A DNA stretch of 64,000 bases from Eledone cirrhosa (Eukaryota), in assembly GCA_964016885.1 (NCBI GenBank), contig OZ024742.1, forward strand, positions 101,556,001-101,620,000. Reading direction: 5' to 3'. Each line of letters starts with the position of its first letter. The stretch's first letter is position 1. The notes beneath the pieces are model-generated. The model saw only the letters and a list, made by a program, of their open reading frames with translations, had not been told where the DNA came from and searched no databases. Below are positions 377-64,000 of the stretch, one piece after another. The position numbers and the translations under genes were made by a program.

Positions 377-455
377 GGAGCTATAATTGGTATTGATGAT
401 GAAGATGATAGTACTTTTACTATTACAGCCAACCAGAAAACCTTTCATTTCCAAG
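377..455 (+). CDS. OSBPL9: OSBPL9/ORP9 homologue, PH-domain coding exon (79 nt, phase 0 to 1)
   Basis: Polypyrimidine tract plus ttacag acceptor; translates [26 protein letters not shown]+G; donor gtaaac at 456. Near-identical to the ORP9 PH segment [26 protein letters not shown] (recalled). Confidence 0.93.
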
Positions 456-2379: not shown

Positions 2380-4130
2380 TGGGCGAAGCTAATCTTTAGT
2401 GTGGAGAGAGCGGTTGACAGATCTGGATGATCAACGAGATCACAGGGAGGAAGAAAAGGTGTTCGAGTCAGATCCAGGGAACGGGGCCCGAGGATAGGAA
2501 GAGGAAATGGCTAGACCATTTTAGGACCCTACTAGGAGAGCCACCCTCCACAGCCCAGAGCACTGGGGAGATTAGGCGGCTGTTTGAGGAACTGGATGTT
2601 GAGGCAGAGCCCTTCACCAGAGAGGAGCTTCAGAGAGCCAAGAAGAAGATCAAGGAGGGCAAGGCTCATGGAGAAGATGGAGTGGCATCAGAGGTGATGA
2701 AGAGGTGTGATTTTGATGATATCATCCTGGGGTTCTGTAACGGGGCACTGGAGAAAGGAGTTGCCCCGAATCAGTGGAGGATCAGTAACATCGTCCCAGT
2801 GCCAAAGAAGGGAGATCTCTCTAACACCAACAACTACCGGGGGATCTCACTGACGTCACTTGTGGCAAAGACCCTCAACAGGATGATTCTTAACAGGATC
2901 CAGCCTGAGATGGAGAAGAAGCTCAGGGACAACCAGAACGGCTTCAGAGAGGGTACATCAACCACCAGTCACATCCTGATGCTGAGGAGGATATTAGAGG
3001 GAGCTAGAGCAAAGTGCCTTCCTGCGGTCATGGTTTTCATTGACTTTAGGAAGGCCTTTGATTCTGTGGACCGTTACTGCCTGATGAAGATCTTACAGGC
3101 TTATGGAATCCCCAAGAGGATAGTGAACCTGATATCACTGCTCTACACCAACACCAAAGTCATTACACCTGATGGGATGACAGAGTTCTTTGAGATACTG
3201 GCTGGAGTGCTCCAGGGAGATACATTGGCTCCCTACCTTTTTATCATCGTAGTGGACTATTGTATGCGCCTTGCACTGGAGAAACACCAGGACTCTGGCT
3301 TTACTGTAGCACCAGCTCAGAGCAGGAGAGTTGGGGCGAAAAAGGTATCGGATGCTGAATTTGCCGATGACATAGTTTTGGTGACAAATACAGTGAAGGA
3401 GGCAGAGGATTTGATGCGGGAGGTTGAGACTGTGTCGATGAGTGTGGGGCTGAGAATGAATGAGACTAAAACAAAATATCTGGTAGAGAATGTTGAGAAG
3501 CCAGAGGGGATCACTAATGTAGGCGGGAAGCCGCTGGAATTGGTTGAGGACTTCCTGTATTTGGGAGCAAAGATTGGGAATACGGAAGATGATGTGGTTG
3601 AGAGGAAGAGCAAGGCCTGGGCGGCGTGTCACAGCTTGAGATCGGTGTGGAAGTCGGACCTTCGTAGAGACCTGAAAATCCGCCTCTTCATTGCTGTAGT
3701 GGAGTCTGTGCTGCTGTATGGGTCTGAGACTTGGACACTGACCAAGAGACTCACTCAGATGGTGGATGGGTGCTACACGAGAATGCTGAGGATGGCTCTG
3801 AACATTAATCAGTATACACTGAGGATGAAAAACTCAGAGCTGTATGGGAGCATCCCAAAAGTCAGCTCAAAAGTGACACAGAGGAGACTGAGGTTGGCTG
3901 GACATGCTCACCGACATCCAAAGTTGACATTGCACTCAGTGATCCTTTGGGAGCCCCCCTATATGGACACACTAGAAGAGGAAGACCAAGGTTAACATAT
4001 GTTGATGCCCTAAGGACAGACACTGGTCTGTTGGAGATGCAGGATATGGCAGCGATAATGAGGGACAGAGACCGCTGGAGAGAACTCGTCCATGGATCTC
4101 GGGAATTTAACCCGCCTTAGATAGATAGAT
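2380..4130 (+). mobile_element. RTE-like non-LTR retrotransposon, 5'-truncated, long RT ORF (2427-3995, 522 aa)
   Basis: RT motifs PKKGD..NYRGISL, QNGFR, FIDFRKAFDS, GVLQGDTLAP, FADD, FLYLG, LLYGSETW; frameshift near 3960; ends tag(atag)n. Confidence 0.93.
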
Positions 4131-6698: not shown

Positions 6699-6878
6699 AA
6701 CGAGTAGAACCCCGACGGCTGAGCTCATGCCGTTTCGACAGCTAATTCTGAATTAGTCCAGAATTAGCCATCGAAACGGGGTCCCACTCGTTCCTATTAC
6801 CCACTCTACTACCCTAAGTATTGAGTACTTTGGTGCGTTATGGTCCACCTGGTTCCTTACCACATTTCATTTCCTGCG

Positions 6879-6911
<33 letters not shown>

Positions 6912-6914
<3 letters not shown>

Positions 6915-6975
6915 AGGCACATGGCTTAGTGGTTACAGCACTGGCCCCGCAATCGAAAGGTTGTGAGTTCAACCT
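6912..6975 (+). mobile_element. tRNA-derived SINE head
   Basis: A-box tggcttagtgg and B-box gagttcaacc; truncated by the (TA)n array. Confidence 0.55.
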
Positions 6976-6981
6976 TTCGAT

Positions 6982-10136
<3,155 letters not shown>

Positions 10137-10732
10137 GTTGGTGCTACTGGTAACATGTATCCCAGTACAACCTGATTCATGGTCGGGTCGTTGGCGACTA
10201 AACTGGCAACCCCACCAAGGTTTCTTGGTGAGGAGGGTGACTTTGGACATCCTGCAGGACTAAAAACAAAACCTGTCAAAGGGCAAAGGAGCTCTTAAGA
10301 GTCAATGGCCATCCAAATCACCGGGAGAGATGACCCCTTAGCCTTTGTCAAGGCAGAATTCTAGGAGAAGGAAAACTCTGATATAACACCTGCAACCTTG
10401 ATGGTATCCAATGATGTTGACTTGTTCTTCTTTTTGGTAAATATCATCTTGGTTAAGAGAGTGGGACTGGCTTTGTGCAGTGCCTTTGCTCACTATAAAA
10501 GCTTCACGGCACAGGCATTGCTTTATATCTGGAGATCTCTCTGCACTTGTCCTCACATGGTACCATGGGCCCAGCACTATGTGTCAATAATTGTCACAAG
10601 TGTAGTGTTTGTACTAGAGTTTTCAAGTCGCTGGCTGGCCTAAAAAGTCACACTCATGCAGCGCTTCGGTAGGGGTTCTCCTACATGGATATAAAGTAGT
10701 GGCCGTACTCGAAAACGCGAGTTGGCAGCCAC
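10137..10732. mobile_element. Probable LINE 5'UTR-derived island between TA arrays
   Basis: Non-repetitive, GC-richer island; the left part resembles RTE 5'UTR motifs (tactggtaaca..cccagta, cgactaaactggcaaccc). Confidence 0.4.
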
Positions 10733-13930
<3,198 letters not shown>

Positions 13931-13986
13931 TTGATTTAAAACTGCACTATCAACAAGTGTTTTTTAGCCTTCATATCATGTTCTCC

Positions 13987-14057
13987 TGTTTTATCTGATG
14001 AAAACACAAATATTATTGTTTGATGATGTTTGTTTTTGAAATGCGCATAATAAAATG
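13987..14057 (+). ncRNA. Type I minimal hammerhead ribozyme
   Basis: tgttttat-CTGATGA-(stem II caaatattattg/tgatgatgtttg)-GAAA-tgcgca-TA-ataaaatg; stem I pairs over 8 bp with G.U; stem III is the palindrome ATGCGCAT. Confidence 0.8.
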
Positions 14058-14092
14058 TATGGAACTCCTTTAACCATCTTTTGATCTTATAT

Positions 14093-14110
14093 TATGTATA
14101 TATATATATG

Positions 14111-14199
<89 letters not shown>

Positions 14200-14422
14200 G
14201 TATATATATATATGTATATATATATGTATATGTATATATGTATATATGTATATATGTATATGTATATATATATATATGTATATATATATGTATATATATA
14301 TATATGTATATATATATGTATATATATATGTATATATATATATATATGTATATATATATGTATATATATATGTATATATATATATATGTATATATATATG
14401 TATATATATATATATGTATATA

Positions 14423-14497
<75 letters not shown>

Positions 14498-14498
14498 G

Positions 14499-14547
<49 letters not shown>

Positions 14548-14923
14548 GTATATATATATGTATATATATATGTATATATATATGTATATATATATGTATA
14601 TATATATGTATATATATATATGTATATATATATATATGTATATATATATATGTGTATATATATACATGTATATATATATATGTATATATATATATGTGTA
14701 TATATATACATGTATATATATATATGTATATATATATATGTATATATATATCTATGTATATATATATATGTGTATATATATATATGTGTATATATATATA
14801 TGTGTATATATATATATGTGTATATATATATATGTGTATATATATATGTGTATATGTATATATATACATATATATATATACATATATATATATACATATA
14901 TATATATACATATATATATATAC

Positions 14924-14994
<71 letters not shown>

Positions 14995-15007
14995 CATATA
15001 TATATAC

Positions 15008-15038
<31 letters not shown>

Positions 15039-15057
15039 CATATACATATATATATAC

Positions 15058-15088
<31 letters not shown>

Positions 15089-15089
15089 C

Positions 15090-15143
<54 letters not shown>

Positions 15144-15410
15144 ATACATATATATATACATATATATATATACATATATATATATACATATATATATATA
15201 CATATATATATATATACATATATATATACATATATATATATATATGCATATATATATACGTATATATATATATATGTATATATATATATGTATATATATA
15301 TATGTATATATATATATGTATATATATATATGTATATATATATATGTATATATATATGTATGTATATATATATGTATATATATATGTATATATATGTATA
15401 TATATATATG

Positions 15411-15497
<87 letters not shown>

Positions 15498-15965
15498 GTA
15501 TATATGTATATATATATGTATATATATATATGTATATATATATATGTATATATATATATGTATATATATATGTATATATATATATGTATATATATATATA
15601 TGTATATATATATATGTATATATATGTATATATATATATATGTATATATATATATGTATATATATGTATATATATATATATGTATATATATATGTATATA
15701 TATATATGTATATATATATGTATATATATATATGTATATGTATATATGTATATATGTATATGTATATATGTATATATATATATGTATATATGTATATGTA
15801 TATATATATATGTATATATATATATGTATATATATATACATATATGTATATATATGTATATATATATATATATATGTATATATATGTATATATATATATA
15901 TATATGTATATATATGTATATATATATATGTATATATATATATGTATATATATATATGTATATAT

Positions 15966-16010
<45 letters not shown>

Positions 16011-16022
16011 TGTATATATATG

Positions 16023-16054
<32 letters not shown>

Positions 16055-17525
16055 TGTATATGTATATGTATGTATATATATATATGTATATATATATATG
16101 TATATATATATATGTATATGTATATGTATATATGTATATATGTATATGTATATGTATATATGTATATATATATATATGTATATGTATATATATGTATATG
16201 TATATATATGTATATATATATATGTATATATATATATGTATATATATGTATATGTATATATATGTATATGTATATATGTATATGTATATATATGTATATG
16301 TATATATATGTATATGTATATATATGTATATATATATGTATATGTATATATATGTATATGTATATATATGTATATATATATGTATATATATGTATATGTA
16401 TATATGTATATATATATGTATATGTGTATATATATATGTATATATATATGTATATGTGTATATATATGTGTATATATATATGTATATATATATGTATATG
16501 TATATATATGTATATGTGTATATATATATGTATATGTGTATGTATATATATATGTATGTATATATATATGTATGTATATATATATGTATATGTGTATATA
16601 TATATGTGTATATATATATATGTGTGTATATATATATATGTGTGTATATATATATATATGTGTGTATATATATGTGTGTATATATATATGTGTATATATA
16701 TATATATGTATGTATATATATATGTGTGTATATATATATGTGTGTATATATATATGTGTGTATATATATATGTGTGTATATATATATGTGTGTATATATA
16801 TGTGTGTATATATATATGTGTGTATATATATATGTGTGTATATATATATGTGTGTATATATATATATGTGTGTATATATATATATGTGTGTATATATATA
16901 TATGTGTGTATATATATATGTGTGTATATATATATGTGTATATATATGTGTGTGTATATATATATGTGTGTATATATATGTGTGTATATATATATGTGTG
17001 TATATATATATGTGTGTATATATATATGTGTGTATATATATATGTGTATATATATATGTGTGTATATATATATATGTGTGTATATATATGTGTGTGTATA
17101 TATATATATGTGTGTATATATATATATGTGTGTATATATATATATGTGTGTATATATATATATGTGTATATATATATATATGTGTATATATATATATATG
17201 TGTATATATATATATGTGTATATATATATATGTGTGTATATATATATGTGTGTATATATATATATATGTGTATATATATATATGTGTGTATATATATATG
17301 TGTGTATATATATATATGTGTGTATATATATATATGTGTGTATATATATATATGTGTGTATATATATATATGTGTGTATATATATATATATGTGTGTATA
17401 TATATATATATGTGTGTATATATATATATATGTGTGTATATATATATATATGTGTGTATATATATATATATGTGTGTATATATATATATATGTGTGTATA
17501 TATATATGTGTATATATATATATAT
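14093..17525. repeat. Giant interrupted (TA)n array, about 3.4 kb
   Basis: G-interrupted, with an internal C-interrupted block at about 14865-15260 and a TGTG-rich right end. Confidence 0.96.
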
Positions 17526-18611
17526 GTTGTTATATTTGGGGAGGGTCATATTTGCGTAATATTGCCAGAATTAATAACAGAACACACTCACTGTTTGGTT
17601 GGTTTTCGCTTCTCGCTGTCTTTTATATCTGCGATCTAACTTACTCGGTCCTCAATGTTGCCATTGACTGACCGGCGGTCAAAAATAATACAGATACAAT
17701 ATAGACACAAACACATATATATAGTTTACATAATTTACATAAATCTTTCGTTGCACATCTGCAACATCGTCAGTGGTGTTATATTCATTGTTCCTCCTGT
17801 TGTGTTGTATGTCTACGCCATTTTTTTATTCAGTCTGTCTATATATTTATTTATTTATTTGCTTGTTTGTTTATCTTATTTTATTTTGTCTTCTTTGCGC
17901 ATGTGTTTGTGTGTGTGTATAGTGTTATGTGTGATGTGTGACTAGTGTGTATAGTGTTGTGTCTGCTGGGTGACTAGTGTGTGTTTATGTGCTTGTTGTT
18001 ATTGTGCTTGTGTATGTATTTATTTATCTTATTTTATTTTATTTTATTTACTTATTTATACTTCTCTTAGGTCAGTGTTGTTTGTTTGGGTGTTGTTGTT
18101 GTTGTTCCACTCATTCTTTCTGTTTAGCTTTGGTCTTCTAATTTCTATTTCACTGGCCTCTCTGATTTGCCTATCTGCTGGGTCATTCCTATGTTTAGAT
18201 ATTATTCTAATTTCTATGTTGTCTATGTTACCGTCATGTTGTTGTCTAGCATGTTCGTATAGTACTGACCCGTTTTTTCGTCCTTTTAGTTCCTCCCAGT
18301 GTTGGTCTATCCTTTCACCTATGCTACGAGCTGTCTCACCTATGTATGTTGTTGTCATGTTTCTGCAAGTACCCTCTGTACATCTTATGCTATAGACTAC
18401 GTTTCTAGTTTTACAGTTTATCCGGGGGTTCACCTTACATATGATACATTTCCTATAAAAGACAGATATAAAAGACAGCGAGAAGCGAAAACCAACCAAA
18501 CAGTGAGTGTGTTATGTTATTAATTCTGGCAATATTACGCAAATATGACCCTCCCCAAATATAACAATATCTGTTTCGACACACGATTTCATATAAAAAA
18601 CCTCGCTAAAC
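17526..18611 (-). mobile_element. Penelope-like element 3' fragment (GIY-YIG endonuclease) with inverted pseudo-LTR segment
   Basis: ORF 18056-18499: CKVNPRINCKTRNVVYSIRC..C..YIGETARSIGERIDQH..LYEH..REASEI..PKLN; about 105-bp inverted repeat at 17526-17631 and 18462-18568. Confidence 0.88.
17736..17780 (-). ncRNA. Penelope-type minimal hammerhead motif (stem I weak)
   Basis: Minus strand reads acca-CTGACGA-t-gttgca-gatg-tgcaac-GAAA-gattTA-tg; core and stem II intact, stem I only about 2 bp. Confidence 0.5.
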
Positions 18612-23342: not shown

Positions 23343-23902
23343 TTTAGCAGTATTGGTTATAGGGTAGATGATTGAAGGTCGTTAGTTGCCAGTGTGGTAA
23401 GTGATAGTATCCTCGTTGGATTACCTTGTTGACATAGACGTGAGGGAAGGTCCCTCGATCTATTTACCATCTATTTACAATATTCCTTTCGTCAGGTCGC
23501 CAATTCCAGCAGCATGGATTATAGATGTTATTGAGACACGAGTAACATAATAATGATTTCAACAGCAGTAATTAGAGATGAAATGTTTGTTTATTTTTGA
23601 TGTAGTACAAACAATGTTTGTTAACTTATATGGTTGAAGTTACAGATAAAAAGAGGTTACAAAAGGGAATGTGCCATTGCGCCGTTAAGCCGGCGAGGCT
23701 AGGGTGCAAATCTCACCGTTACATTATGCGTGTTGCTGGCTTGAAGTTTCCGGTACAAGAGAGAGATTCTTCAAATCTTCGCGGGGAATTTCTTCCTCAG
23801 GGCGCGTAGGGATACATCCTCTTCTACTGGCGCTGATTGGCTGAACTGAGCCAAATCACGCACAGAGAATGTATGTGAGCCCGCGGAATGTAGGTCACTA
23901 CA
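23343..23902 (-). repeat. 5' LTR (560 bp)
   Basis: Minus strand begins TGTAGTG, ends CTGCTAAA, followed by g-TGGTGACC. Confidence 0.9.
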
Positions 23903-24520
23903 CCCCTATACATGGCTTGTACAGCTTTCACAAGCCATTTATCTACTCCTAGTTTTCTAAGAGCCCACCAGATTATAGCACGTGGAACTCTGTCAAAGGC
24001 TTTCTCGAGATCGACGAATGCCAGGTAGAGTAGCTTACTTTTAGCTAGGTACTTTTCCTGTAACTGCCTCACAAGGAAGAGGGCATCAGTGGTGCCTCTT
24101 CCTGGTACAAACCCAAATTGCATCTCATCTAGTTTCACCCGGTCCCTAATCAACTGTGCTATAATTCTTTCTGTTACTTTCATGACCTGGTCCATCAGCT
24201 TTATACCTCTATAGTTTCCTCTATCTAGTGCATCACCTTTACCTTTGTAGCAGTTGACAATGATGCTACTGCACCAATCTTTTGGTATGACACCTTCTAG
24301 TATTACCTGGTTAACAATACGTGTGGTTATAGTGTGACCTACAGACCCAGATGCCTTCAGCATCTCGGCAGCTATACCCGATGGACCCGTTGCCTTCCCC
24401 ATCTTAATATCTTTGATTGCCTTACTTACTACGCTGCTGCTGACTTGTACTGCTGGCCCCTCTATAGGGTCTACTTGGGGTAGGGTCTCTTCTTCCCATG
24501 CATTCTCCTCATTTAGTAAT
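23903..24520 (-). mobile_element. RTE LINE family B, upstream RT part
   Basis: [48 protein letters not shown]; continues at 21181 (AVSKVRI). Confidence 0.92.
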
Positions 24521-24529
24521 CTATACATA

Positions 24530-25117
24530 CACAATTCCTTGCTTCTTTCAGCAATTTCTTGGCATTCGAGATGTCCAGTGCCTTGTATGTCTGTGTTTCT
24601 CGAGCCACCTGTGCGAAGGAGACTGCAGCTGTGGGTCCGTTTTCTTTTGTGTTGTTATCGTTGTTAGTGTTATTCATGTTGGCTTGCTTTTTTCGTTTGT
24701 TGGTCTTGTCATTATTGCTGTTGTTGGTTGTGTTGTTATTGTCATTGTTGTTCTTGTTTGTGTAATTGTTACTTTTGGGGTTTTCACCCATTTCCACAAT
24801 TTTCTCTTTTGATTCCATGGTGTCTTTTGCGGGAGTGAGGAAGGAAGGTTTACAGCGTTGGGCTGATACCTTCTCTCTATCACTTTCCTTGGGGGGCATG
24901 GCATGTGTTGTCCATTGTCACTAAACGACTTTTTATCGATAACTTATAACTATCAAATTTCAGCCCAAAAAGGGGCAAAATTAATTTTACCCAACGTCTG
25001 CAGGCCCAGGTGAGGGTTAAACACAACAAATAACAAGTAGCTTAAACAAACCTACCGCTTCTCATAATAAATTCCGACAAAATGCAGGAGCGAAACATAA
25101 ACACGTCTATCTTCTTC
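24530..25117 (-). mobile_element. Probable 5'UTR plus ORF1 start of an L1/Tx1-like element
   Basis: ORF 24513-24899 with Asn-rich linker and SFAQVA motif; upstream agacgtgttt..tcgctcc resembles L1/Tx1 5' ends (recalled). Confidence 0.45.
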
Positions 25118-25159
25118 GAGATAGATAGATGTGTGTGTGTGCGTGTGTATACATATATT

Positions 25160-26705
25160 GCAGAGGTGACATCTGCTGTGCATAAACTGAACTGTGGTAT
25201 GTCTTCTGGTATGGATGGTCTGAGTGCAGAGGTTTTGAAGTGTGGTCGTGAAAATTTCACGCAGCGTCTGACTGACCTCATGAAAAAGGTGTGGAAAGAT
25301 GAGAATGTCCTACAAGTTTGGAAGGATGTATTCATGGTGATTCTCCAAAAAGGAAAGGGTGGGAAAGACAAATGTGTAAATTATTGTGGCATATCACTTC
25401 TTTCAGTAGTTAGTAAAGTCATGTGTCAAATTGTGATGGATAGATTGATCTCAAGGGTTGCTCTGAATGTGTTGCCTGAGTTGCAGTGTGGGTTCAGAAA
25501 TGAAAGAGGAACAGTAGATGTGATCTTCATCACTCAGCAGCTGACAAAGGTCTTTGACACCGTCAATTGAACTACGTTGTGGAAAATTTTGGAAAAGCTT
25601 GGCTGCTCTTCAAAGTTTCTAAAAATTCTGCGTCTTTTTCATGATGACATGAAGGCTTTGGTCAGTATTGGTGGTAGCATCTCTGAACCAATATCAGTTG
25701 AAAATGGAGTGAAGCAGGGGGACATTCTGGCTCCAACTCTGTTTTCCTAATATTTTATGATAGTATTTCTCATGGCATTCAGGAAAAATGCTCGTGTGGA
25801 GTTTACATCAGGTATTGCCTTTCAGGATGGTTGTTCAACATCAGGTGCTTTGATGCAAGCACGAAGGTATTAACATCTATAATCTGAAAGTTTTTGTATG
25901 CAGATAACTGCAATCTTTTTGCACACTCACAAAGTGACATGCAGCATATTATGAACTCTTTTTCTGAAGCTTACAGCGCTTTTGGCCTCACAATAAACTT
26001 TTAAAAGACTGTTGTGATGTACCAGCCAGTAACTAGGAAACAATATACTACACGAAGTGTGTACATGTACGGACAGAGGCTAAAAGTTGCTGACAAGTTT
26101 GTTTACCTTGGTAATACGTAGAACAATTCATGCACACTTGATGATGAGATATCCTTAAGAATCAAGAAAGCCAGTGATGCTTTTGGACAACTGAATAAAC
26201 ATTCATGGTCCAGACGAGGTATCACCATTGAAACTAAGGTAAAAGTGTATCTGACTTGTGTCCTCTCCCCTTTGCTTTATGCTTGTGAAACGTGGGTCAC
26301 ATACAGAAAACACCCCAAGGAACTGGAGAGGTTTCACCAACAATCTCTTCGTAAGATATTTGTGGTGCGATGGAAAATGTTCGTCAGCGATCTGGAAGTT
26401 CTTGAAAGGAGCCGGTGTATGAGCATAGAGAGCATGGTCTTTCAGCATTGGTTGAGGTGGTGCGGTCACGTGGTCTGGATGTCTGATGATCATATTCCAA
26501 AGCAACTTCTCTATGGTGAACTGTGCAAAGGAAGGTGACCTCCACACAAACCAAAAATGTGGTACTGGGACTGTGTCAGAGGCACCTTGGCTTGCGCTGG
26601 AATTTCATCTGACAAATAGGAGAAAATGGCTCAGGAGCATGTGAAGTGGAAACGTTTGATGAAGTTAGGAAGTGAACACTTTGAAACTCGTCGAAGAGAA
26701 CACCT
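25160..26705 (+). mobile_element. Decayed RTE-BovB-like LINE
   Basis: NYCGISLLS, QCGFRNERGTVD, NGVKQGDILAP, LLYACETW, LRWCGHV..IPKQLLYGEL; multiple stops and frameshifts. Confidence 0.88.
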
Positions 26706-26719
26706 AATGATGATGATGC

Positions 26720-27172
26720 TGATGATATCATCATCATCATCAACGTTTAACGTCCATCTTCCACGCTAGCATGGGTTTAGACGGGAATTGTCCTACTTGA
26801 GGCAAGATTGGTCGGGTGACCATGTCTCGCTCGTATAGGGCTGTCTGGCAGGTTTTCTACGGCTGGTTGCCCTTCCTAACACCAACCACGTTTACAGTGT
26901 GGACTGGGAGGTTTTTACCGTGTTACCTACACGGCCACATTACAGCGTGGACTGTGTGTTTTTTTGTCGTGACACCTACACGACCTCATTTATTTTGGAC
27001 TGGATGTTGTGTTACCAACATAACTTTACAGAGAAAGGGTGGTGTTGGTGGGGGTGGGGTGGAGTAGGGGTAGTGGATGGGGTATATATTTGGTTAAGAG
27101 GTGCCTACAGACTGTAGGTTTCGCTTTGTACATAGGCAAGGCGGTTCTTCTGTATTACTGCGTAGCGCCAAA
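26720..27172 (-). mobile_element. RTE family A 3'UTR fragment
   Basis: (cat)n tail and the shared UTR. Confidence 0.85.
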
Positions 27173-27408
27173 GGTAAAAACATTAACCGAATGAGTAGAA
27201 AAATATGACTTTCAAGTTTCAGCTTCATTGCTTCACCAGCATCATCTTATGGACATGAGTTGGTAAATATTAATGTTATTTGATAGACTCCAAGGCGATT
27301 AATATAGCAGGAATGAAAATTCCTGTTATTTTAATTGGAACATTTATCAATTAATTAAATGATTTTAATTTAAATTCTGGTTATTTTTATATATATATAT
27401 ATATATAC

Positions 27409-30400
27409 AGAAATGCTTGAACATAAGGAGGTTGATGTTTTCTGTATCCAAGAGACCAGGTGAAGTGGTGGGTCTGCTAGATTCATTGTGGGTAAAAAAC
27501 AATGCTATAAGCTTTTCTGGGTGGGAAATGACAATGGGCTGGGTGGAGTAGGAATCATGTTAGCAGAAAAATGGGTAGATAAGATAATAGACGTAAATAG
27601 AGTGAACGACAGAATAATTAAAATAAGACTTGTCCTAAATAGAACTACTGTGACAGTAATATCTGCGTACGCACCTCAATCCGGACTGCCTGGCATTATA
27701 AAAGACAGATTCTATGAGACATTGATGCTCACTACCTCCCAAATAACTGACAGTGACTACATAATTATTGCTGGCGACCTAAATGGTCACGTTGGATAAC
27801 ATTGTGAAGGCTATGACGGAATCCATGGAGGTTATGGGTTTGGTACTAGAAATGAGGAAGGCGCCAGAATCCTGGAATTCTGTGACGCAAATAACCTAAC
27901 TGTCTGTAACACTAACTTCAAAAAACGAGACAATCACTTGATCACCTACAGATCAGGGGAACACGCCAGTCAGATAGATTATATCCTTACCAGAAGACGT
28001 GATAGAGTGTCTGTTGTAAACACTAAATCCCTCGCCCATGAAGAATGCACCTCCCAACATACTCATAGTCAGCGACCTCATAGTCAGGACAAGACGTACT
28101 CGAAAACAGAGGAGGACTATCCTCAGGAGAAAAATATGGAAGCTAAAGGACCCCACAGCCAGTAATAAATTTCAAAGCATATTACTTGATGCTTTCGACA
28201 GTAAGGAAGAGCATTTAGAGTCGTACAATATAGAGGAACAGTGGGAATTCCTGAAAGCAAACCTGCTGATGGCGGCAGACGAAGTCTGTGGCCGGAGCAG
28301 GCCTATAGGCAGGAGGAGAGTAACGTGGTGGTGGAATAGTAAGGTGGAGGAGTCAATTAAGGCCAAAAAGCAGGCTTGGAAAGTATGGCGGGATGGGGGA
28401 AGTAGAGAAGACTATCAAGTGGCCAGAGGGAAGCTAGGAGACAAGTGTACTTAGCAAGAAGGGAAGCAGAGGAAAGAAAGTTCAAGCATGTTCTACAACG
28501 CGAGGACCAAAAACGTGAGGTGTTCAGGATTGCTAGGCAATGTGTCAAGGAAAACCATGATATTGTCGGGGAGAAGTATGTCCTTAATGATGATGGTGTA
28601 CTTGCCATCACTGACGCTTGGAAGTGTCACTACGAAAGGCTACTAAATGAGGAGAATAAATGGGAGAAAGACAGTCTCCCCCACATCGATCCAATAGAGG
28701 GACCAGCAGTGCTAGTTGAAGGTAGTATAATAAGGCAATCAGAGATATGAAGACGGGTAAGGCGGCTGGGCCTTCGGAAATAGTTGCTGAAATGCTGAAA
28801 GCATCTGGAACGGTGGGACACACTATGGTCACCCGGATAGTAAACCAAGTCATACAGAATGGGGTCATTCCGAAGGACTGGCGTAGCAGCATCATCATTA
28901 ACTGCTACAAGGGTAAAGGAGATGCCCTAGATAGGGGTAACTATAGAGGCATTAAATTAATCGACCAGATCATGAAGGTCACAGAAAAAGTAATAGCACA
29001 ACTAATCAGAGAGCGAATTGATCTAGATGAAATGCAGTTTGGGTTTGTGTCAGGAAAAAGTACCACACGCTCTTTTCATTGTATGACAACTACAGGAGAA
29101 GTACCTAGCTAAAAGTAAACCCCTATACTTAGCTTTTGTTGACTTGGAGAAAGCCTTTGACAGAGTCCCCCACTCCATTATCTGGTGGGCTCTTAGAAAA
29201 CTAGGTGTTGAGGAATGGCTTGTGAGAGCTATACAAGCCATGTATAAAGAAACAGTCAGCAAGGTTAGAATTAACAACGAATATAGTGAAGAGTTTAGCG
29301 TAAAAGTTGGTGTTCATCAGGGCCCCCGTCCTTAGCCCCCTCCTATTTATTATTGCTCTTCAGGCTATAACAGAGGAGTTCAAGACCGGCTGCCCATGGG
29401 AACTCCTATACGCAGATGATCTAACGCTCATAGCTGAATCAATGGCCGAACTAGAGAAGAAATTCCAAACATGGAAGCATGGCCTAGAATCAAAAGGCCT
29501 TAAAATTAACCTGTCTAAGACTAAAGTTTTAGTTTGTAGGAAGGAAAATAAGGCACCAGTCCCATCTGGGAAATGGCCATGCTCAGTGTGTAGGAAAGGA
29601 GTAGGCAGAAACTCCATTTTATGTCCCAAATGCAAAGTATGGGTGCATAAAAGATGTAGTGGGATCACAGGTAAGCTAACTAAGAATATAGATTTTATAT
29701 ATGGCCGGTGCTCTGGTGCAATAAGTAGCAGCAAGTGCTCATAGAATACTAGCTCATTCCATTGCACAGATGGTTCTATAGAAATAGTGGACACCTTCCG
29801 TTACCTGGGTGACAAAATCAGCAGTGGTGGAGGGTGCTCTGAAAGTACAGTAGCTAGAGTCAGAACGGGATGGAAAAAGTTCAGAGAGCTTATACCACTA
29901 TTGGCCGCTAAAGGGTTCTCTCTAAAAATGAAAGGCAGACTGTATGATGCCTGCATACGAACAGCAATGTTACATGGCAGTGAGACCTGGGCATTGTGTG
30001 CAGAGGATATACGCAGACTGGAGAGGAACAAAGCGTGCATGCTCCGCTGGATGTCTAATAGTAATATACGTGAACGGCAAAGCATAAACGAACTAAGGGA
30101 GAAATTAGGAATAAGAGGGATCAGATGCTGTTTACTCGAGAGAAGACTACGTTGGTACGGTCAAGTGATGCGCATGAAAGACGACAGCTGTATAAAAAAG
30201 TGCAGGGCGATAAAAATAGATGGTAGCCACGGAGTAGGCAGACCCAGAAAAACCTGGGACGATTTGATAAATTCCGACCTCACACACTTACACCTCTCCA
30301 AGACAATGTTATTGGACCGAGATCTTTGGCGCTACACAGTAATACAGAAGACCCGCCTTGTCTAAGTACAAAGCGAAACCTACAGTCAGTAAGCACCTCT

Positions 30401-47990: not shown

Positions 47991-48593
47991 TATATTCATT
48001 CATGTATTTACTCATAATTTTATTAAATAAATGTTCAGATGGCAGTAGTCAATGAAATAAGTTGGATCTAGCTACTGAACTGTCTCGTCGATACATCAAT
48101 TACAACGCGACGTTTAACTGAATACATGCATGTCATTCACCTATCTCGTTCACTACATTTCACTCTGTTTTAGTAAATGACACTTGTTGTTATTGTTTTG
48201 TTTTTTTTATTCATTTTCTCCGAAAGTATCGGAATACTTTTTCTCTATATTTCCCCTTTAATAATATTTATTTGCTTAGTTATATCTATCTGTTTAGGCG
48301 GCAAACTCGTAGCATTTGGCAGTTTATCTCATTCATATTGCCACTATTGTGTGTGTATATATGTTTATATAGACACATATATATACATTTATAGTATATA
48401 TATACATACATACATATATATATATACATTTATAATATATATATTATAATATATATATAAGCAAAGCGATATTTAATTTGTTGGTAATTCAACAAATATA
48501 TATATTTATAACTGATTCGAAGCACTCGACAGTTTTCTGGAGTATATTATCAATGATATTAATAAATGGAAACTATATTTATAAAACCATATT

Positions 48594-48654
48594 TATTCTA
48601 TTATATATATTTCAAGGGTACCAAAATTTTGGTACGCTCTCATCAGATAAAATA
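48594..48654 (-). ncRNA. Type I minimal hammerhead, copy A
   Basis: tattttat-CTGATGA-gagcgtaccaaaattttggtaccctt-GAAA-tatata-TA-atagaata. Confidence 0.78.
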
Positions 48655-48752
48655 CAAAGTTTGTTTTATAAAGTTTGTTTTACTATCCAGGTAAAACTTG
48701 AACTGTTAAGATCTCGTTTCTGGATATGTCAATATTTATAAAACAAACTTTG

Positions 48753-48813
48753 TATTTTATCTGATGAGAGTGTACCAAAATTTTGGTACCCTTGAAATAT
48801 ATATGATAGAATC
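48753..48813 (+). ncRNA. Hammerhead copy B (G at cleavage position, probably inactive)
   Basis: tattttat-CTGATGA-gagtgtaccaaaattttggtaccctt-GAAA-tatata-TG-atagaatc. Confidence 0.65.
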
Positions 48814-48819
48814 AATATG

Positions 48820-48861
<42 letters not shown>

Positions 48862-48977
48862 AGCAATGAGTTATTTAATTTGTTGATTATTCAACAAATT
48901 TAGTTTATAACAGATTTGAAGCACTCAATAAGTTTATTAATATTAATAAATGGAAGCTATCTTTATAAAACCATATT

Positions 48978-49038
48978 TATTTTATTATATATATTTCAAG
49001 AGTACCAACATTTTGGTACGCTCTCATCAGATAAAATA
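48978..49038 (-). ncRNA. Type I minimal hammerhead, copy C
   Basis: tattttat-CTGATGA-gagcgtaccaaaatgttggtactctt-GAAA-tatata-TA-ataaaata; perfect 8-bp stem I. Confidence 0.8.
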
Positions 49039-49862
49039 CAAAAGTTGGTTTACAGATAGTGACATATTCAAACTAGAACTTAATGTTGTGAGATCTAAAC
49101 ATTAAGTTCTAGTTTGAATATGGTTTTATAAAGATAGCTTCCATTTATTAATATTATTGATATATATATATATATATATATATATCGCAAATGCATTCGC
49201 ATTCATCAGTTGTTCTGAAAATGAAATTTGTTTTTCATTGTTAATTAGCCTAGTGTAGTTTTGGTGATTCTTTTCAAATAACCGACTATTTCAGCGTTTC
49301 TTTTTTAGTTCTGACTCTTTATTTTTTAAATGCCTCGTACCTCGTGGGGCTCCTCGCCAGAAGTGATGATGGTGTACTGATTGGCACAGTCCCTCTACCA
49401 TCGTCGAAATCGACGGAGGTCCATTCCACCAGTTTCCTCGGAAACGTCTAATCAAAAGAAATCAATGCTAGTTTTGCATGAAACATTGGATTTACAATAT
49501 CGAATAAATATATATTTGCTAGTTTAATGTACAATTTAAAGAGGATTTTTTTTATTTTTTATATAAGATCGCCTTGTAAGGTATGTTTGGTATGTTTAAG
49601 AAAAGATTCATTAAAATGTTCAAGGGCGTTAATATGTAATGAAAACTTATATTTAGCATTGAAGTCGTCAGCTCCATTCTGGTATGGTTTCTATAACTGG
49701 ATGTCTTTCCTACAGCCAACCACTTATAATAATAATGAAATTATTGTGTACAGTGCTCAGGTACACTACAATTCATCTAAGGTGCATGTATAGTACATAG
49801 AATAATGTACAACTGTCAGGAAAGTGAACAGGTATTTACCGAGAAGCTATCTTTATAAAACA

Positions 49863-49923
49863 TATTTTATTATATATATTTCAAGAGTACCAAAATGTTG
49901 GTACGTTCTCATCAGATAAAATA
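49863..49923 (-). ncRNA. Type I minimal hammerhead, copy D
   Basis: tattttat-CTGATGA-gaacgtaccaacattttggtactctt-GAAA-tatata-TA-ataaaata. Confidence 0.75.
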
Positions 49924-50163
49924 TAAAAGTTGGTTTACAGATAGTGACATGTTCAAAGATTCATTAAAATTTTCAAGGGCGTTAATATGTAATGAAAACT
50001 TATATTTAACATTGAAGTCGTCAGCTCCATTCTGGTGCGTGTTATCGTAGTACCGCCATTACTACTTGATACAAATTGTATTTGATAAAATATATTTCTA
50101 AAATAAAATAAAATACTATAACTATCAACCATAATAATTACGTCCCGTATCTGTATATTTATA

Positions 50164-50262: not shown

Positions 50263-52149
50263 TATATCCAATCACAAGGTCCTGCGTTCTAACCCTAAAT
50301 TTGTCCCTGTAAATAGTTATTTCTCGAAAGTTACTCACACTTTTAATTCTGTATGGTTTTGCACACACATAAAGAACAATTTATTAATATATTCTTAACC
50401 TTAGTCACTTCTGTGTTTATGTAAATATATCCTAAAAATAGATTATTAAAATATTTATACCTTGAATCACTTCCACATGTCAGTAATCAACATAGGCTAT
50501 AAGGTTTCTCTTATGCAAACCATTATTTTATTAAAACTAAAATTTCCCAGTTTGTATGGTTGTTCATATATCTGGTAATACTGGTATATATGACATACCA
50601 ATCCTGGACACCCCCAAATGAAATACCTTTAACTCTATTGCCGTGACTATTGATGTCACTGGGTCCACTAGTACGTATATAAAATTCCAGAGCTGTATTT
50701 CTAAGTTATATTACTATTCTTAAATATTATGACTGAGACCAGTAAATGCGCAACAAAATTTGTTTTAATTAGTTCGAATACAATAAAACGGATGATTCTA
50801 CTCTAGAAAACGATTGTGTATATACTGTTTGATTTGTGATGTTTAACATAATTGTACTGTCTCATTATAAACCTTAATAGTTGTTTCTATTTTGGGCACA
50901 AGGCTAGCAATTATCCAGTGCATTACTGGTACTTTATTTCAAGGATGAATGGCAAAGTTAACCTCGGCAGGATTTGAACTCGGATCGTAAAGGGACGTAA
51001 CCAGTCATCATATACATATTCTATCTTTGTATGGGTTGTCAAACATTTTTTCCTCAGTAACTCAGTAAATTAAGATTTTTTATTTAACTCTTAACATCTT
51101 GCAATGATTTAAGCAGAAAATATCTAAAAACGGGTTTGTAATTTAAATACTTGTAGTATCTTTACTGGTAGACTACCAGTAAAGACACTACACATTATCG
51201 TTTGCAGTGTTATCTCTTAACGTCCTGCAATGATCTAGCAGAAAATATCTAAAAACGGGTTTGTTAATTGAAATGTGTGTAGTATCTTTACTAAGGGCAG
51301 GTCATTGTGAAAATTAGCACCAAACTAAAGACTAATTTTTAATGTCATGCAGTTTTAGCGTGGTTCTGTACCTTCCAAGGTTGTCTTACTAATGCGGTTT
51401 CATCTTAATCAATCAATTCAGATTTAGCAAATAACCTTGCTGTTGTTTTTTTTTAAGAAATGAGTTTGTAAAATATTGTGAGCATTGTCAATTATCTCTA
51501 CCTGATATGACAATTAAGATTGGGTGGAATACAACCAGTTGTATTGAATATATAAATACAACTGCTTAATATTCTATTTTAACAACAGACAGTAATTTGG
51601 CAACAAATAAATAGAAACTACACAAGAAAAAATAAATGTTCACACATTATATATTTAAAAAATCATATATAAAGAACGTGTGGCTTAAAACAGATGCATA
51701 ATTAGTAATTAGTGTCAGCCTTTTTCATTACCATATTTCTAATGAAAGACATTGCCTATGGTTCTCAAATGATTTTTAAAATAATCAAGAATTTCGAAGA
51801 ATTGTAAGTTTCTCATCATTAAGTTGGTTTTTGGAACTTAACAAAGATTCTAACGTAAAATTACGTATGATGGAAGGTTTTTCGGATAAATATAAATACT
51901 TTAATACAAATTAGCATCATTGAACCAGGAGTGGATTCAGTTGGTTTAGTGTAAAAAATATGTTTAGGAATGATCACGGAAAGTAAGGCAATGGGTTGAC
52001 AGTATTGATAGACCATTGGATAAAATGCATTTGTAGTATTTATCCTGACTCTTTACATTCTGAAGTCAACTTGCCTTTTATCCTTCTTGGGTTGATAAAA
52101 TAAAGTACCTGAGCACTGTACACAATAATTTTCATTATTACGGGTGGTG

Positions 52150-61259: not shown

Positions 61260-62991
61260 ATCATCATCATCATCATCGTTTAACGTCCATCTTCCATGCT
61301 AGCATGGGTTTGGACAGGAATTTTCCCACTTGAGGCAAGATTGGTTGTCTTGTTCGTGTAGGACTGTCTGGCGGGTTTTCTACGGCTGGATGCCCTTCCT
61401 AACACCAACCACATTTACAGTGTGGGTCTGGGAGGTTTTTACCGTGTTACCTACACGGCCACATTACAGCGTGGACTGTGTGTTTTTTTTTGTCGTGACA
61501 CCTACACGACCTCATTTGTTTCAGACTGGATGTTGTGGTACCAACATAACTTTACATTGAAAGGGGTGGTGTGGATGGGGTGGGGGTAGTGGGACGGGGT
61601 GTATTTGTTAGAGGTGCTTACTGACTGTAGTAGGTTTCACTTTGTACTTAGGTAAGGCGGGTCTTCTGTATTACTGTGTAGCGCCAAAGATCTCGGTCCA
61701 GTGACATTGTCTTGGAGAGGTGTAAGTGTGTGAGGTTGGAATTTATCAAGTCGTCCCAGGTTTTTCTGGGTCTGCCTACTCCGTGGCTACCGTTTATTTT
61801 TATTGCCCTGCACTTTTTTATACAGCTGTCGTCTTTCATGCGCATCACTTGACCATACCAACGTAGTCTTCTCTCGAGTAAACAACATCTGATCCCTCTT
61901 ATTTCTAATTTTTCCCTTAGTTCGTTTATGCTTTGCCGTTCACGTATATTACTATTACACATCCAGCGGAGCATGCAAACTTCGTTCCTCTCCAGTCTGC
62001 GTATATCCTCTGCACACAATGCCCAGGTCTCACTGCCATGTAACATTGCTGTTCGTATGCAGGCATCATACAGCCTGCCTTTCATTTTTAGAGAGAACCC
62101 TTTAGCGGCTAATAGTGGTATAAGCTCTCTGAACTTTTTCCATCCAGTTCTGACTCTAGCTACTGTACTTTCAGAGCACTCTCCACCACTGCTGATTTTG
62201 TCACCCAAGTAATGGAAGGTGTCCACTATTTCTATAGAACCATCTGTGCAATGGAATGAGCTAGTATTCTGTGGGCACTTGCTGCTACTTATTGCACCAG
62301 AGCACCAGCCACATAAAATCTATGTTCTTAGTTAGCTTACCTGTTATCCCACTACATCTTTTATGCACCCATACTTTGCATTTGGGACATAAAGTGGAGT
62401 TTCTACTTACTCCTTTCCTACACACTGAGCATGGCCATTTCCCGGATGGGACCGGTGCCCTATTTTCCTTCCTACAAACTAGAACTTTAGTCTTACAGGT
62501 TAATTTTGAGGCCTTTTGATTCTAGGCCGTGCTTCCCTGTTTGGAATTTCTTCTCTAGTTCGGCCATTGATTCAGCTATGAGCGTTAGATGATCTGCGTA
62601 TAGGAGTTCCCATGGGCAGCCGGTCTTGAACTCCACTGTTATAGCCTGAAGGGCAATAATAAATAGTAGGGGGCTAAGAACGGAGCCCTGATGAACACCA
62701 ACTTTTACGCTAAACTCTTCACTATATTCGTTGTTAATTCTAACCTTGCTGACTGTTTCTTTATACATGGCTTGTATAGCTCTCACAAGCCATTCATCAA
62801 CACCTAGTTTTCTAAGAGCCCACCAGATAATGGAACGGGGGACTCTGTCGAAGGCTTTCTCCAAGTCGACAAAAGCTAAGTATAGGGGTTTACTTTTAGC
62901 TGGGTACTTCTCCTGTAGTTGTCGTACAATGAAAAGAGCGTCTGTGGTGCTTTTACCCGACACAAACCCAAACTGCATTTCATCTAGATCA

Positions 62992-62996
<5 letters not shown>
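61260..62996 (-). mobile_element. RTE LINE family A, 5'-truncated (RT to 3'UTR)
   Basis: ORFs 62493-62978 and 61648-62226 are nearly identical to 29030-30365; (cat)n tail on the plus strand. Confidence 0.94.
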
Positions 62997-63038
<42 letters not shown>

Positions 63039-63312
63039 ATATATATATGTGTGTGTATATATATATGTGTGTGTATATATATATATATGTGTGTGTATAT
63101 ATATATGTGTGTGTATATATATATGTGTGTGTGTGTATATATATATATATGTGTGTGTGTATATATATATATGTGTGTGTGTATATATATATATGTGTGT
63201 GTATATATATGTGTGTGTGTATATATATGCGTGTGTATATATATATGCGTGTATATATATATATATACGTGTATATATATATATATATGTGTGTGTGTAT
63301 ATATATATATAT

Positions 63313-63346
<34 letters not shown>

Positions 63347-63645
63347 GTGTATATATATATATGTGTATATATATATATATGTATATATGTGTATATATAT
63401 ATATATGTGTATATGTGTATATATATATATATGTGTGTGTATATATATATATATGTGTGTGTGTATATATATATATATGTGTGTGTATATATATATATAT
63501 GTGTGTGTATATATATATATATGTGTGTGTATATATATATATATGTGTGTGTGTATATATATATATGTGTGTATATATATATATATGTGTGTGTATATGT
63601 ATATATATGTGTGTATATGTATATATATGTGTGTATATGTATATA

Positions 63646-63680
<35 letters not shown>

Positions 63681-63749
63681 GTGTGTGTATATATATATAT
63701 ATATGTGTGTGTGTGTATATATATATGTGTGTGTGTGTGTATATATATA

Positions 63750-63780
<31 letters not shown>

Positions 63781-64000
63781 GTGTGTGTGTATATATATAT
63801 ATGTGTGTGTGTGTGTATATATATATGTGTGTGTGTGTATATATATATATATGTGTGTGTGTGTATATATAGTGTGTGTGTGTATATATATATATATGTG
63901 TGTGTGTGTATATATATATATGTGTGTGTGTATATATATATGTGTGTGTGTGTGTGTATATATATATGTGTGTGTGTTTATATATATGTGTGTGTGTATA
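62997..64000. repeat. (TA)n/(TG)n compound array running off the window
   Basis: Direct inspection. Confidence 0.95.

Follow-up and report, generated by a model that had tools for sequence, protein, structure and literature searches.

A hammerhead cluster in Eledone cirrhosa very probably derived from truncated 3' ends of a high-copy Hydra-clade Penelope-like element

Penelope-like elements (PLEs) are described in PMC8557442 as combining a pLTR in partial tandem, an inverted 5'-truncated copy and a tail on one end. Hammerhead pairs on opposite strands, 100-700 bp apart, were attributed to truncated PLEs in 2014 (PMC4209133), where a metazoan PLE hammerhead left the monomer uncut and cut the dimer weakly; the role of PLE hammerheads is still called unclear in PMC8557442. 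The Hydra clade, e.g. Hydra-1_Obim and Penelope-13_HM, is diagnosed in section 11 of PMC8557442 by features that include RWK, DKT, CxCx5C and CxxC/CxH around E and N. As described there, it has in common with the Eledone family reported here a reverse transcriptase (RT) with C-terminal GIY-YIG, DKT and CxCx5C, (TA)n targeting with 5'-truncated inverted copies, and a sense-strand type I hammerhead near the 3' end. With the metazoan PLE hammerheads covered by PMC4209133, the Eledone motifs share a short palindromic helix III and a long helix II; in both cases a genome has many consensus families, most copies are single and truncated, and dual motifs occur on opposite strands at distances of 100-700 bp. 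Animal non-LTR retrozymes (PMC7229834; bioRxiv 10.64898/2026.07.22.740005) likewise have a type I hammerhead, low GC and PLE ancestry, but they are described as same-strand tandem repeats with a hammerhead per unit, whereas the Eledone copies are dispersed, variably truncated and inverted, and have a coding parent.

We analysed a window of 64,000 nucleotides of E. cirrhosa (contig OZ024742.1, positions 101,556,001 to 101,620,000). With high confidence, its hammerhead cluster is read as the 5'-truncated 3' ends of a high-copy Hydra-clade PLE, inserted in (TA)n, likely in an intron, with hammerheads predicted to work only as dimers in the parent RNA. Matches to CTGATGA-N-GAAA lie at 48610-48646 (minus strand), 48761-48797 (plus), 48994-49030 (minus) and 49879-49915 (minus); the core pattern occurs six times in the window against 0.62 expected, and none of 100 shuffles reached six. 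All four motifs are where an earlier sequence-only reading had placed them, on the same strands, and the units beginning after TA tracts and the inverted and direct repeats that it listed are all present. As 61-mers, hammerheads A-D fold with an 8-bp stem I, a long stem II and A-TATATA-T, the two-pair stem III coming from the palindrome ATATATAT, which bears out the claim of minimal type I hammerheads with a self-complementary stem III. That stem III had also been equated with the microsatellite; it is instead a fixed 8-nt palindrome, of which the form ATATGTAT, found in sister subfamilies, is the commoner one. A, C and D have the full minimal type I set (CUGANGA and GAAA core, UH triplet, stems I and II) with the cleavage triplet AUA, while B has AUG and thus G17; the cleavage base lies at 48602 in A, 48805 in B (where it is a G), 48986 in C and 49871 in D. 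The covariance-model check proposed with the earlier reading drew a blank: Rfam gave no hammerhead in the window even at E<=10, its sole output being noise that included microRNA hairpin matches below threshold.

Copy A (48458-48700, minus strand, upstream boundary approximate) is the 3' end of a 5'-truncated Hydra PLE and has the long tail (~80 nt); it matches the unit-2 query at 82% over q1-193. Its long 3' end meets a degenerate (TA)n tract (48356-48459, found by TRF), the landing site, and it holds hammerhead A (48594-48654, minus), with an intact core and A as cleavage base. Copy B (48706-48828, plus, start approximate) is its inverted, 5'-truncated partner without a tail and holds hammerhead B (48753-48813, plus). 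The two form a 104-nt inverted repeat (94%), and both hammerheads are predicted to be buried in the A/B duplex. A (TA)17.5 tract (48824-48858, TRF) separates this insertion from copy C (48860-49095, minus, upstream boundary approximate), which belongs to another subfamily, has a long tail and carries hammerhead C (48978-49038, minus), with an intact core and A as cleavage base, 126 nt from the long 3' end. The short inverted partner of C (49095-49159, plus, start approximate) lacks a hammerhead and has the short 3' end, next to a (TA)13 tract (49160-49185, TRF); it is the source of the hairpin at 49063-49122 and of the arm at 49117-49156, which pairs 40/40 with 48938-48977. A and B differ at 4 positions in 99 nt and have 9 non-majority variants in common, and C has none in common with either, so we take A+B and C as two insertions in one TA tract, B likely coming from the same insertion as A. 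Copy D (49843-49955, minus), a fragment cut at both ends, carries a hammerhead at 49863-49923 with A as cleavage base. It is 91% identical to C, and one stem II variant common to C and D occurs in 0 of 56 other copies, so D may be a local copy of C.

D is bordered by an 82-bp direct repeat (49602-49683 and 49955-50036, 98%), which we considered as upstream element sequence and rejected, since it occurs in only two places, both at this locus (29/29 candidates scored). The sequence-only reading had listed it among the repeats of the cluster; it is local DNA outside the element. This duplication encloses, besides D, two other repeat pieces: the filler at 49684-49842 consists of pieces of other repeats that match window repeats and L076, and one piece in 49602-50036 matches window 52105-52140 at 97%. 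The patchwork looks like a templated insertion at a break. A MITE reading of the inverted repeats was also rejected, as the arms are unequal, the 5' ends vary and a coding parent exists.

The genome-wide copy search that the earlier reading had called for, run with 48860-49160, delivered 4,103 first-look candidates in the 3.0-Gb genome, TA flanks and RT-bearing parents; 40 candidates were scored, and the best 20 are 82-92% identical to copy C. An exact 32-nt pattern for half of the hammerhead has 2,129 genome matches, and sister subfamilies with the stem III ATATGTAT, which have the same anatomy, account for 15,908 exact matches (reversed-pattern controls, 0 in both cases). These two non-overlapping exact patterns put the hammerhead copies at no fewer than 18,037. 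Oriented on the hammerhead strand, family copies have a common 3' end and variable 5' stops. There are two 3' end types, one short and one ~80 nt longer, and both run into (TA)n in most of the 41 copies shown, also in sister subfamilies. Among the first 100 matches listed, a hand count found 15 pairs of the A/B kind (minus then plus, less than 1 kb apart), one of the B/C kind (plus then minus) and none with both copies on one strand within 1 kb. All 13 back-to-back pairs in fetched loci have exactly one long tail, the partner being short in six and unclassified in seven. Insertions of this family thus normally have the structure seen here in the A/B pair, the nested inverted repeats and the ~80-nt tail at one end, and the family has the pLTR partial tandem, the inverted 5'-truncated copy and the one-end tail of PLEs, with a tail longer than the 30-40 bp described for PLEs in PMC8557442. 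From back-to-back pairs (48574-48833 and many loci), at least 100 bp of near-perfect dsRNA is expected in intronic transcripts of either strand, which may be a substrate for editing or small RNAs.

Longer copies lead to a coding parent. Three loci (L005, L020, L037) have more than 1 kb of common upstream sequence that reaches an endonuclease C-terminus, a region with 1,696 candidates whose loci carry RT motifs. Alignments of three others (L069, L070, L071) span 3.4-3.9 kb up to the same terminal hammerhead, with 79-88% identity to window copy C; the element length is ~3.9 kb, with 1.0-2.1 kb between endonuclease and hammerhead. The sister-subfamily copy L185 has a 743-aa frame with RWR, SDKTNN, YRDY, CNCRNKSNC, Y-VG and CSLC..EE..N..SCKH, and YRDD is found in L057 and L179 where L185 has YRDY. 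Of 74,339 RT candidates, 106 were scored (67-90% identity with the query), and none showed an intact full-length frame: all frames seen are broken or incomplete, the longest open ones being 743-787 aa. In four of six loci (L071, L072, L185, L187), the tail of an upstream copy joins the body directly, without TA, ~50 nt before the start codon, which is the pLTR; in the other two, an insertion splits L171 and the junction of L179 contains TA. The part of the sequence-only reading that called the units (TA)n-anchored, retroelement-derived and 'Penelope pLTR-like' was correct. Its further idea of a non-coding, retrozyme-like family does not fit the RT and GIY-YIG frame upstream, nor a window in which TRF finds no tandem unit.

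The parent elements agree with the Hydra description at several points: (i) the change of DKG to DKT is present (KSDKTNNLY); (ii) the CxCx5C linker is present (CNCRNELNC), the pattern occurring in 15 of 20 RT-picked loci; (iii) the endonuclease has a GIY-YIG-like YK..YIG, with CxxC and CxH around E and N (CHLCIEE...N...SCRH), and no CCHH was seen in the parent frames by eye; (iv) a sense-strand hammerhead with intact core lies downstream of the endonuclease in 8 of the 20 RT-picked loci, while a further 4 have one upstream of the frame; and (v) insertion is into (TA)n. Where the N-terminal RWK would stand (Hydra-1_Obim IRRMRWKAFFF), the Eledone frame has RWR (IRRLRWRAFHF), a conservative variant and not identical. 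A single ORF of RT followed by C-terminal GIY-YIG is indicated by the L185 frame together with Atlas leads (RT/HTH_animal clusters, 0.93-0.97; GIY-YIG clusters, 0.94-0.95). Pfam gave no RT and no GIY-YIG on seven parent frames and PDB nothing on one, so the assignment of the parent as a probable Hydra-clade PLE rests on motifs, comparison by eye with the printed Hydra alignment and the Atlas leads. Set against the Hydra clade of PMC8557442, the Eledone family differs in RWR versus RWK and in a length of ~3.9 kb versus less than 3 kb, the latter a descriptive trend and no diagnostic motif. Its hammerhead, with triplet AUA, matches none of those in File S2 of that source, and its protein is, by eye, clearly diverged from that of Hydra-1_Obim, a different family with a 2.5-kb length and another hammerhead. 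Literature searches turned up no paper on the family, Repbase and Dfam lying outside the search. It may nevertheless be catalogued already, since PMC13282606 lists 30 Penelope families in an octopus and gives neither their clades nor details of ribozymes.

Other mobile elements were noted along the way. Distant Hydra-type RT or endonuclease fragments (main matches 26-44% identity) adjoin family copies at L038, L011, L098, L104 and L136, which suggests that further Hydra families may stack in the same TA tracts. At 18056-18511 (minus) the window has another GIY-YIG endonuclease C-terminus (VVYSIRC...YIGET...EH...IRE...LN), by eye apparently of a different PLE clade. RTE/CR1-like LINE RT fragments, named by eye and including a 525-aa open frame, lie at 2418-3995 (plus), 23824-30365 and 61648-63977, and three (TA/CA)n-type simple-repeat fields of more than 3 kb each lie within 6800-17700.

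Whether the motif works as a ribozyme bears on the alternative that survives best, namely that it resembles a ribozyme without working as one and instead serves as a protein-binding or DNA hairpin signal at the end of the element. There are points in its favor: the lack of an Rfam match, the missing G10.1-C11.1 pair (A-U in 8 and G-U in 6 of 14 copies), a predicted monomer stem III probability below 0.003, and the weak or absent in vitro cleavage of metazoan PLE hammerheads, for which PMC4209133 keeps other roles possible. Since A-U pairs make up nearly all of stems I and III, actual activity is possibly very low, and the stem III self-duplex is weak (AUAUAUAU, -3.2 kcal/mol; AUAUGUAU, -2.2 kcal/mol), its palindrome allowing a dimer. 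Relative to the metazoan PLE hammerheads of PMC4209133, the Eledone motif has no G10.1-C11.1, a stem I of 8 bp that is almost all A-U, and an unpaired C-C (C-U in C and D) at the fourth position of stem II. A U before GAAA, as in the Eledone family, is also found in most of the Hydra hammerheads listed in PMC8557442, which at the G10.1-C11.1 site have U as well.

Conservation speaks against such a non-working signal. We aligned 14 hand-picked copies spanning subfamilies; identity is 98-100% in the core, 58% in stem II, 44% in the 5' flank and 75% in the 3' flank, the core figure being partly built in since most copies were found with core-containing patterns. The only core change is at the free position 7, so that the full consensus CUGANGA, GAAA and UH is kept across subfamilies. 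Pairing of stems I and II is kept: both partners vary in five of eight stem II pairs, and 98.4% of cells are paired. None of 500 shuffles reaches that fraction, although related sequences can surpass shuffles. The stem III change to AUAUGUAU stays self-complementary. On this near-invariant core and stem II covariation, the ribozyme appears to have been selected in active lineages, and we regard the non-ribozyme reading as unlikely. In every stem II type inspected, position four is an unpaired C-C (C-U in copies C and D, U-C in B; 48627/48618 region in copy A) next to pairs that covary; the mismatch is possibly a protein or tertiary contact.

Within inserted copies the picture is different. The core-versus-flank comparison proposed earlier holds between subfamilies, where the core exceeds its flanks, and fails within inserted copies, where decay is even across core, cleavage site and flank (1.2-1.8% per site): against 2,091 unchanged copies, and with each site counted singly, the cleavage base is changed in 38 copies, a core A in 26 and a flank A in 35 (p 0.3-0.8). 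Selection would accordingly have acted in transposing lineages and not in inserted copies. A flank-anchored check of the 20 RT-picked loci yielded 14 copies, 9 of them intact, 1 split by an insertion and 4 with different private core lesions, a pattern in keeping with masters that are intact and copies that decay after insertion. Those in the window are probably inert and under neutral decay.

This even decay also bears on hammerhead B, whose G had been put down to selection against cleavage of the host pre-mRNA. The host gene likely runs on the plus strand: a likely PH-domain exon of an OSBP-related gene at about 377-455 (plus), located by a sequence motif, has ORP11 PH as its sole PDB match (E 1.2, weak), and an Oxysterol_BP exon lies on the plus strand ~50 kb beyond the window end (E 4.3e-5, below the Pfam cut-off). 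The cluster therefore likely sits inside a plus-strand intron of an OSBP-related gene. Of the earlier 'OSBPL9 sense strand', the strand and the OSBP-related gene are supported, and the name OSBPL9 was given by no tool. B is the only plus-strand copy and has G at the cleavage base, as do only 19 of 2,110 otherwise identical copies, and it has three private hammerhead changes against none in A, too few to weigh. Yet this is a single case (n=1), a flank A is changed to G just as often (15 times; p=0.61), and some core lesion occurs in 4 of the 14 flank-anchored copies. Given equal decay in core, cleavage site and flank, the G that B has at its cleavage site is not enriched. B is moreover predicted to be fully duplexed with anti-A in plus-strand RNA and has no same-strand dimer partner, which leaves little to select against; that the host inactivated B to protect its pre-mRNA is very improbable.

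The remaining alternative is an independent non-coding, retrozyme-like family in which the C-to-A interval is released as a 384-nt circular RNA. C and A do have intact cores on the same strand with cleavage sites 384 nt apart, retrozyme monomers are given as 150-450 bp in PMC7229834, retrozymes are thought to derive from PLE ends (bioRxiv 10.64898/2026.07.22.740005), and short copies far outnumber long ones. The interval, however, is no repeat unit: it is made up of the tail of one copy, (TA)n, the antisense of B and half of A. Copies A and C, 82% alike, also represent different subfamilies and are separated by (TA)n and an inverted copy. Whichever strand is transcribed, A and B are each predicted to pair over their full length with the antisense of the other (-151 kcal/mol hairpin), and the stem I and II probability of A is 0.0 in context both before and after a cut at C, so that the circularising RNA proposed by the sequence-only reading fails on a copy still duplexed with anti-B after the cut. 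This 104-bp A/B duplex argues against the 384-nt circle, and the locus is predicted to make no circular RNA. C and D, 885 nt apart, are the sole plausible same-strand dimer pair, with predicted stem I probabilities in context of 0.05 and 0.006. With no same-strand 150-450 bp tandem repeats, no same-strand neighbors within 1 kb among the first 100 matches listed, 5' ends that vary as truncation predicts, and RT-bearing parents where a family without an autonomous parent would have none, we give the retrozyme reading almost no credence.

Returning to the Hydra-clade PLE, its anatomy and the cited papers point to the following course of events. A parent with an upstream pLTR would be transcribed, and the two hammerheads of its RNA would pair via the self-complementary stem III and cleave, which would free a ~4-kb unit RNA that may become circular. 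The GIY-YIG domain would nick (TA)n and the RT copy from the 3' end, usually stopping after 100-300 nt, and a strand or template switch would add the inverted second copy without a tail. At this locus at least two such events would have occurred, giving A+B and C plus its short arm, and D would have arrived with the 82-bp duplication, possibly as a local copy of C. A bolder variant, which we hold to be a long shot, is that of an unusually weak hammerhead switched on only by dimerisation together with binding of its own RT at the stem II mismatch. If true, in a family of 18,000 or more copies, same-strand neighbors such as C and D could dimerise and cleave host or antisense transcripts, and tandem pLTR-plus-ORF copies and the many subfamilies would make the role of the PLE hammerhead directly testable.

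The locus is ordinary transposon debris, its four motifs belonging to unremarkable, decaying copies of an element of known kind. What appears to distinguish the family, on sequence comparison, is its length, its longer tail, its 18,037 or more hammerheads, the lack of G10.1-C11.1 and the constant stem II mismatch. It would represent a very large Hydra-clade PLE expansion (74,339 first-look RT candidates) in a clade described from ~27 families, its 3' region being longer as well as its tail, and it provides naturally covarying sequences of a minimal hammerhead overlooked by Rfam, along with tandem pLTR copies suitable as substrates for work on the role of the PLE hammerhead.
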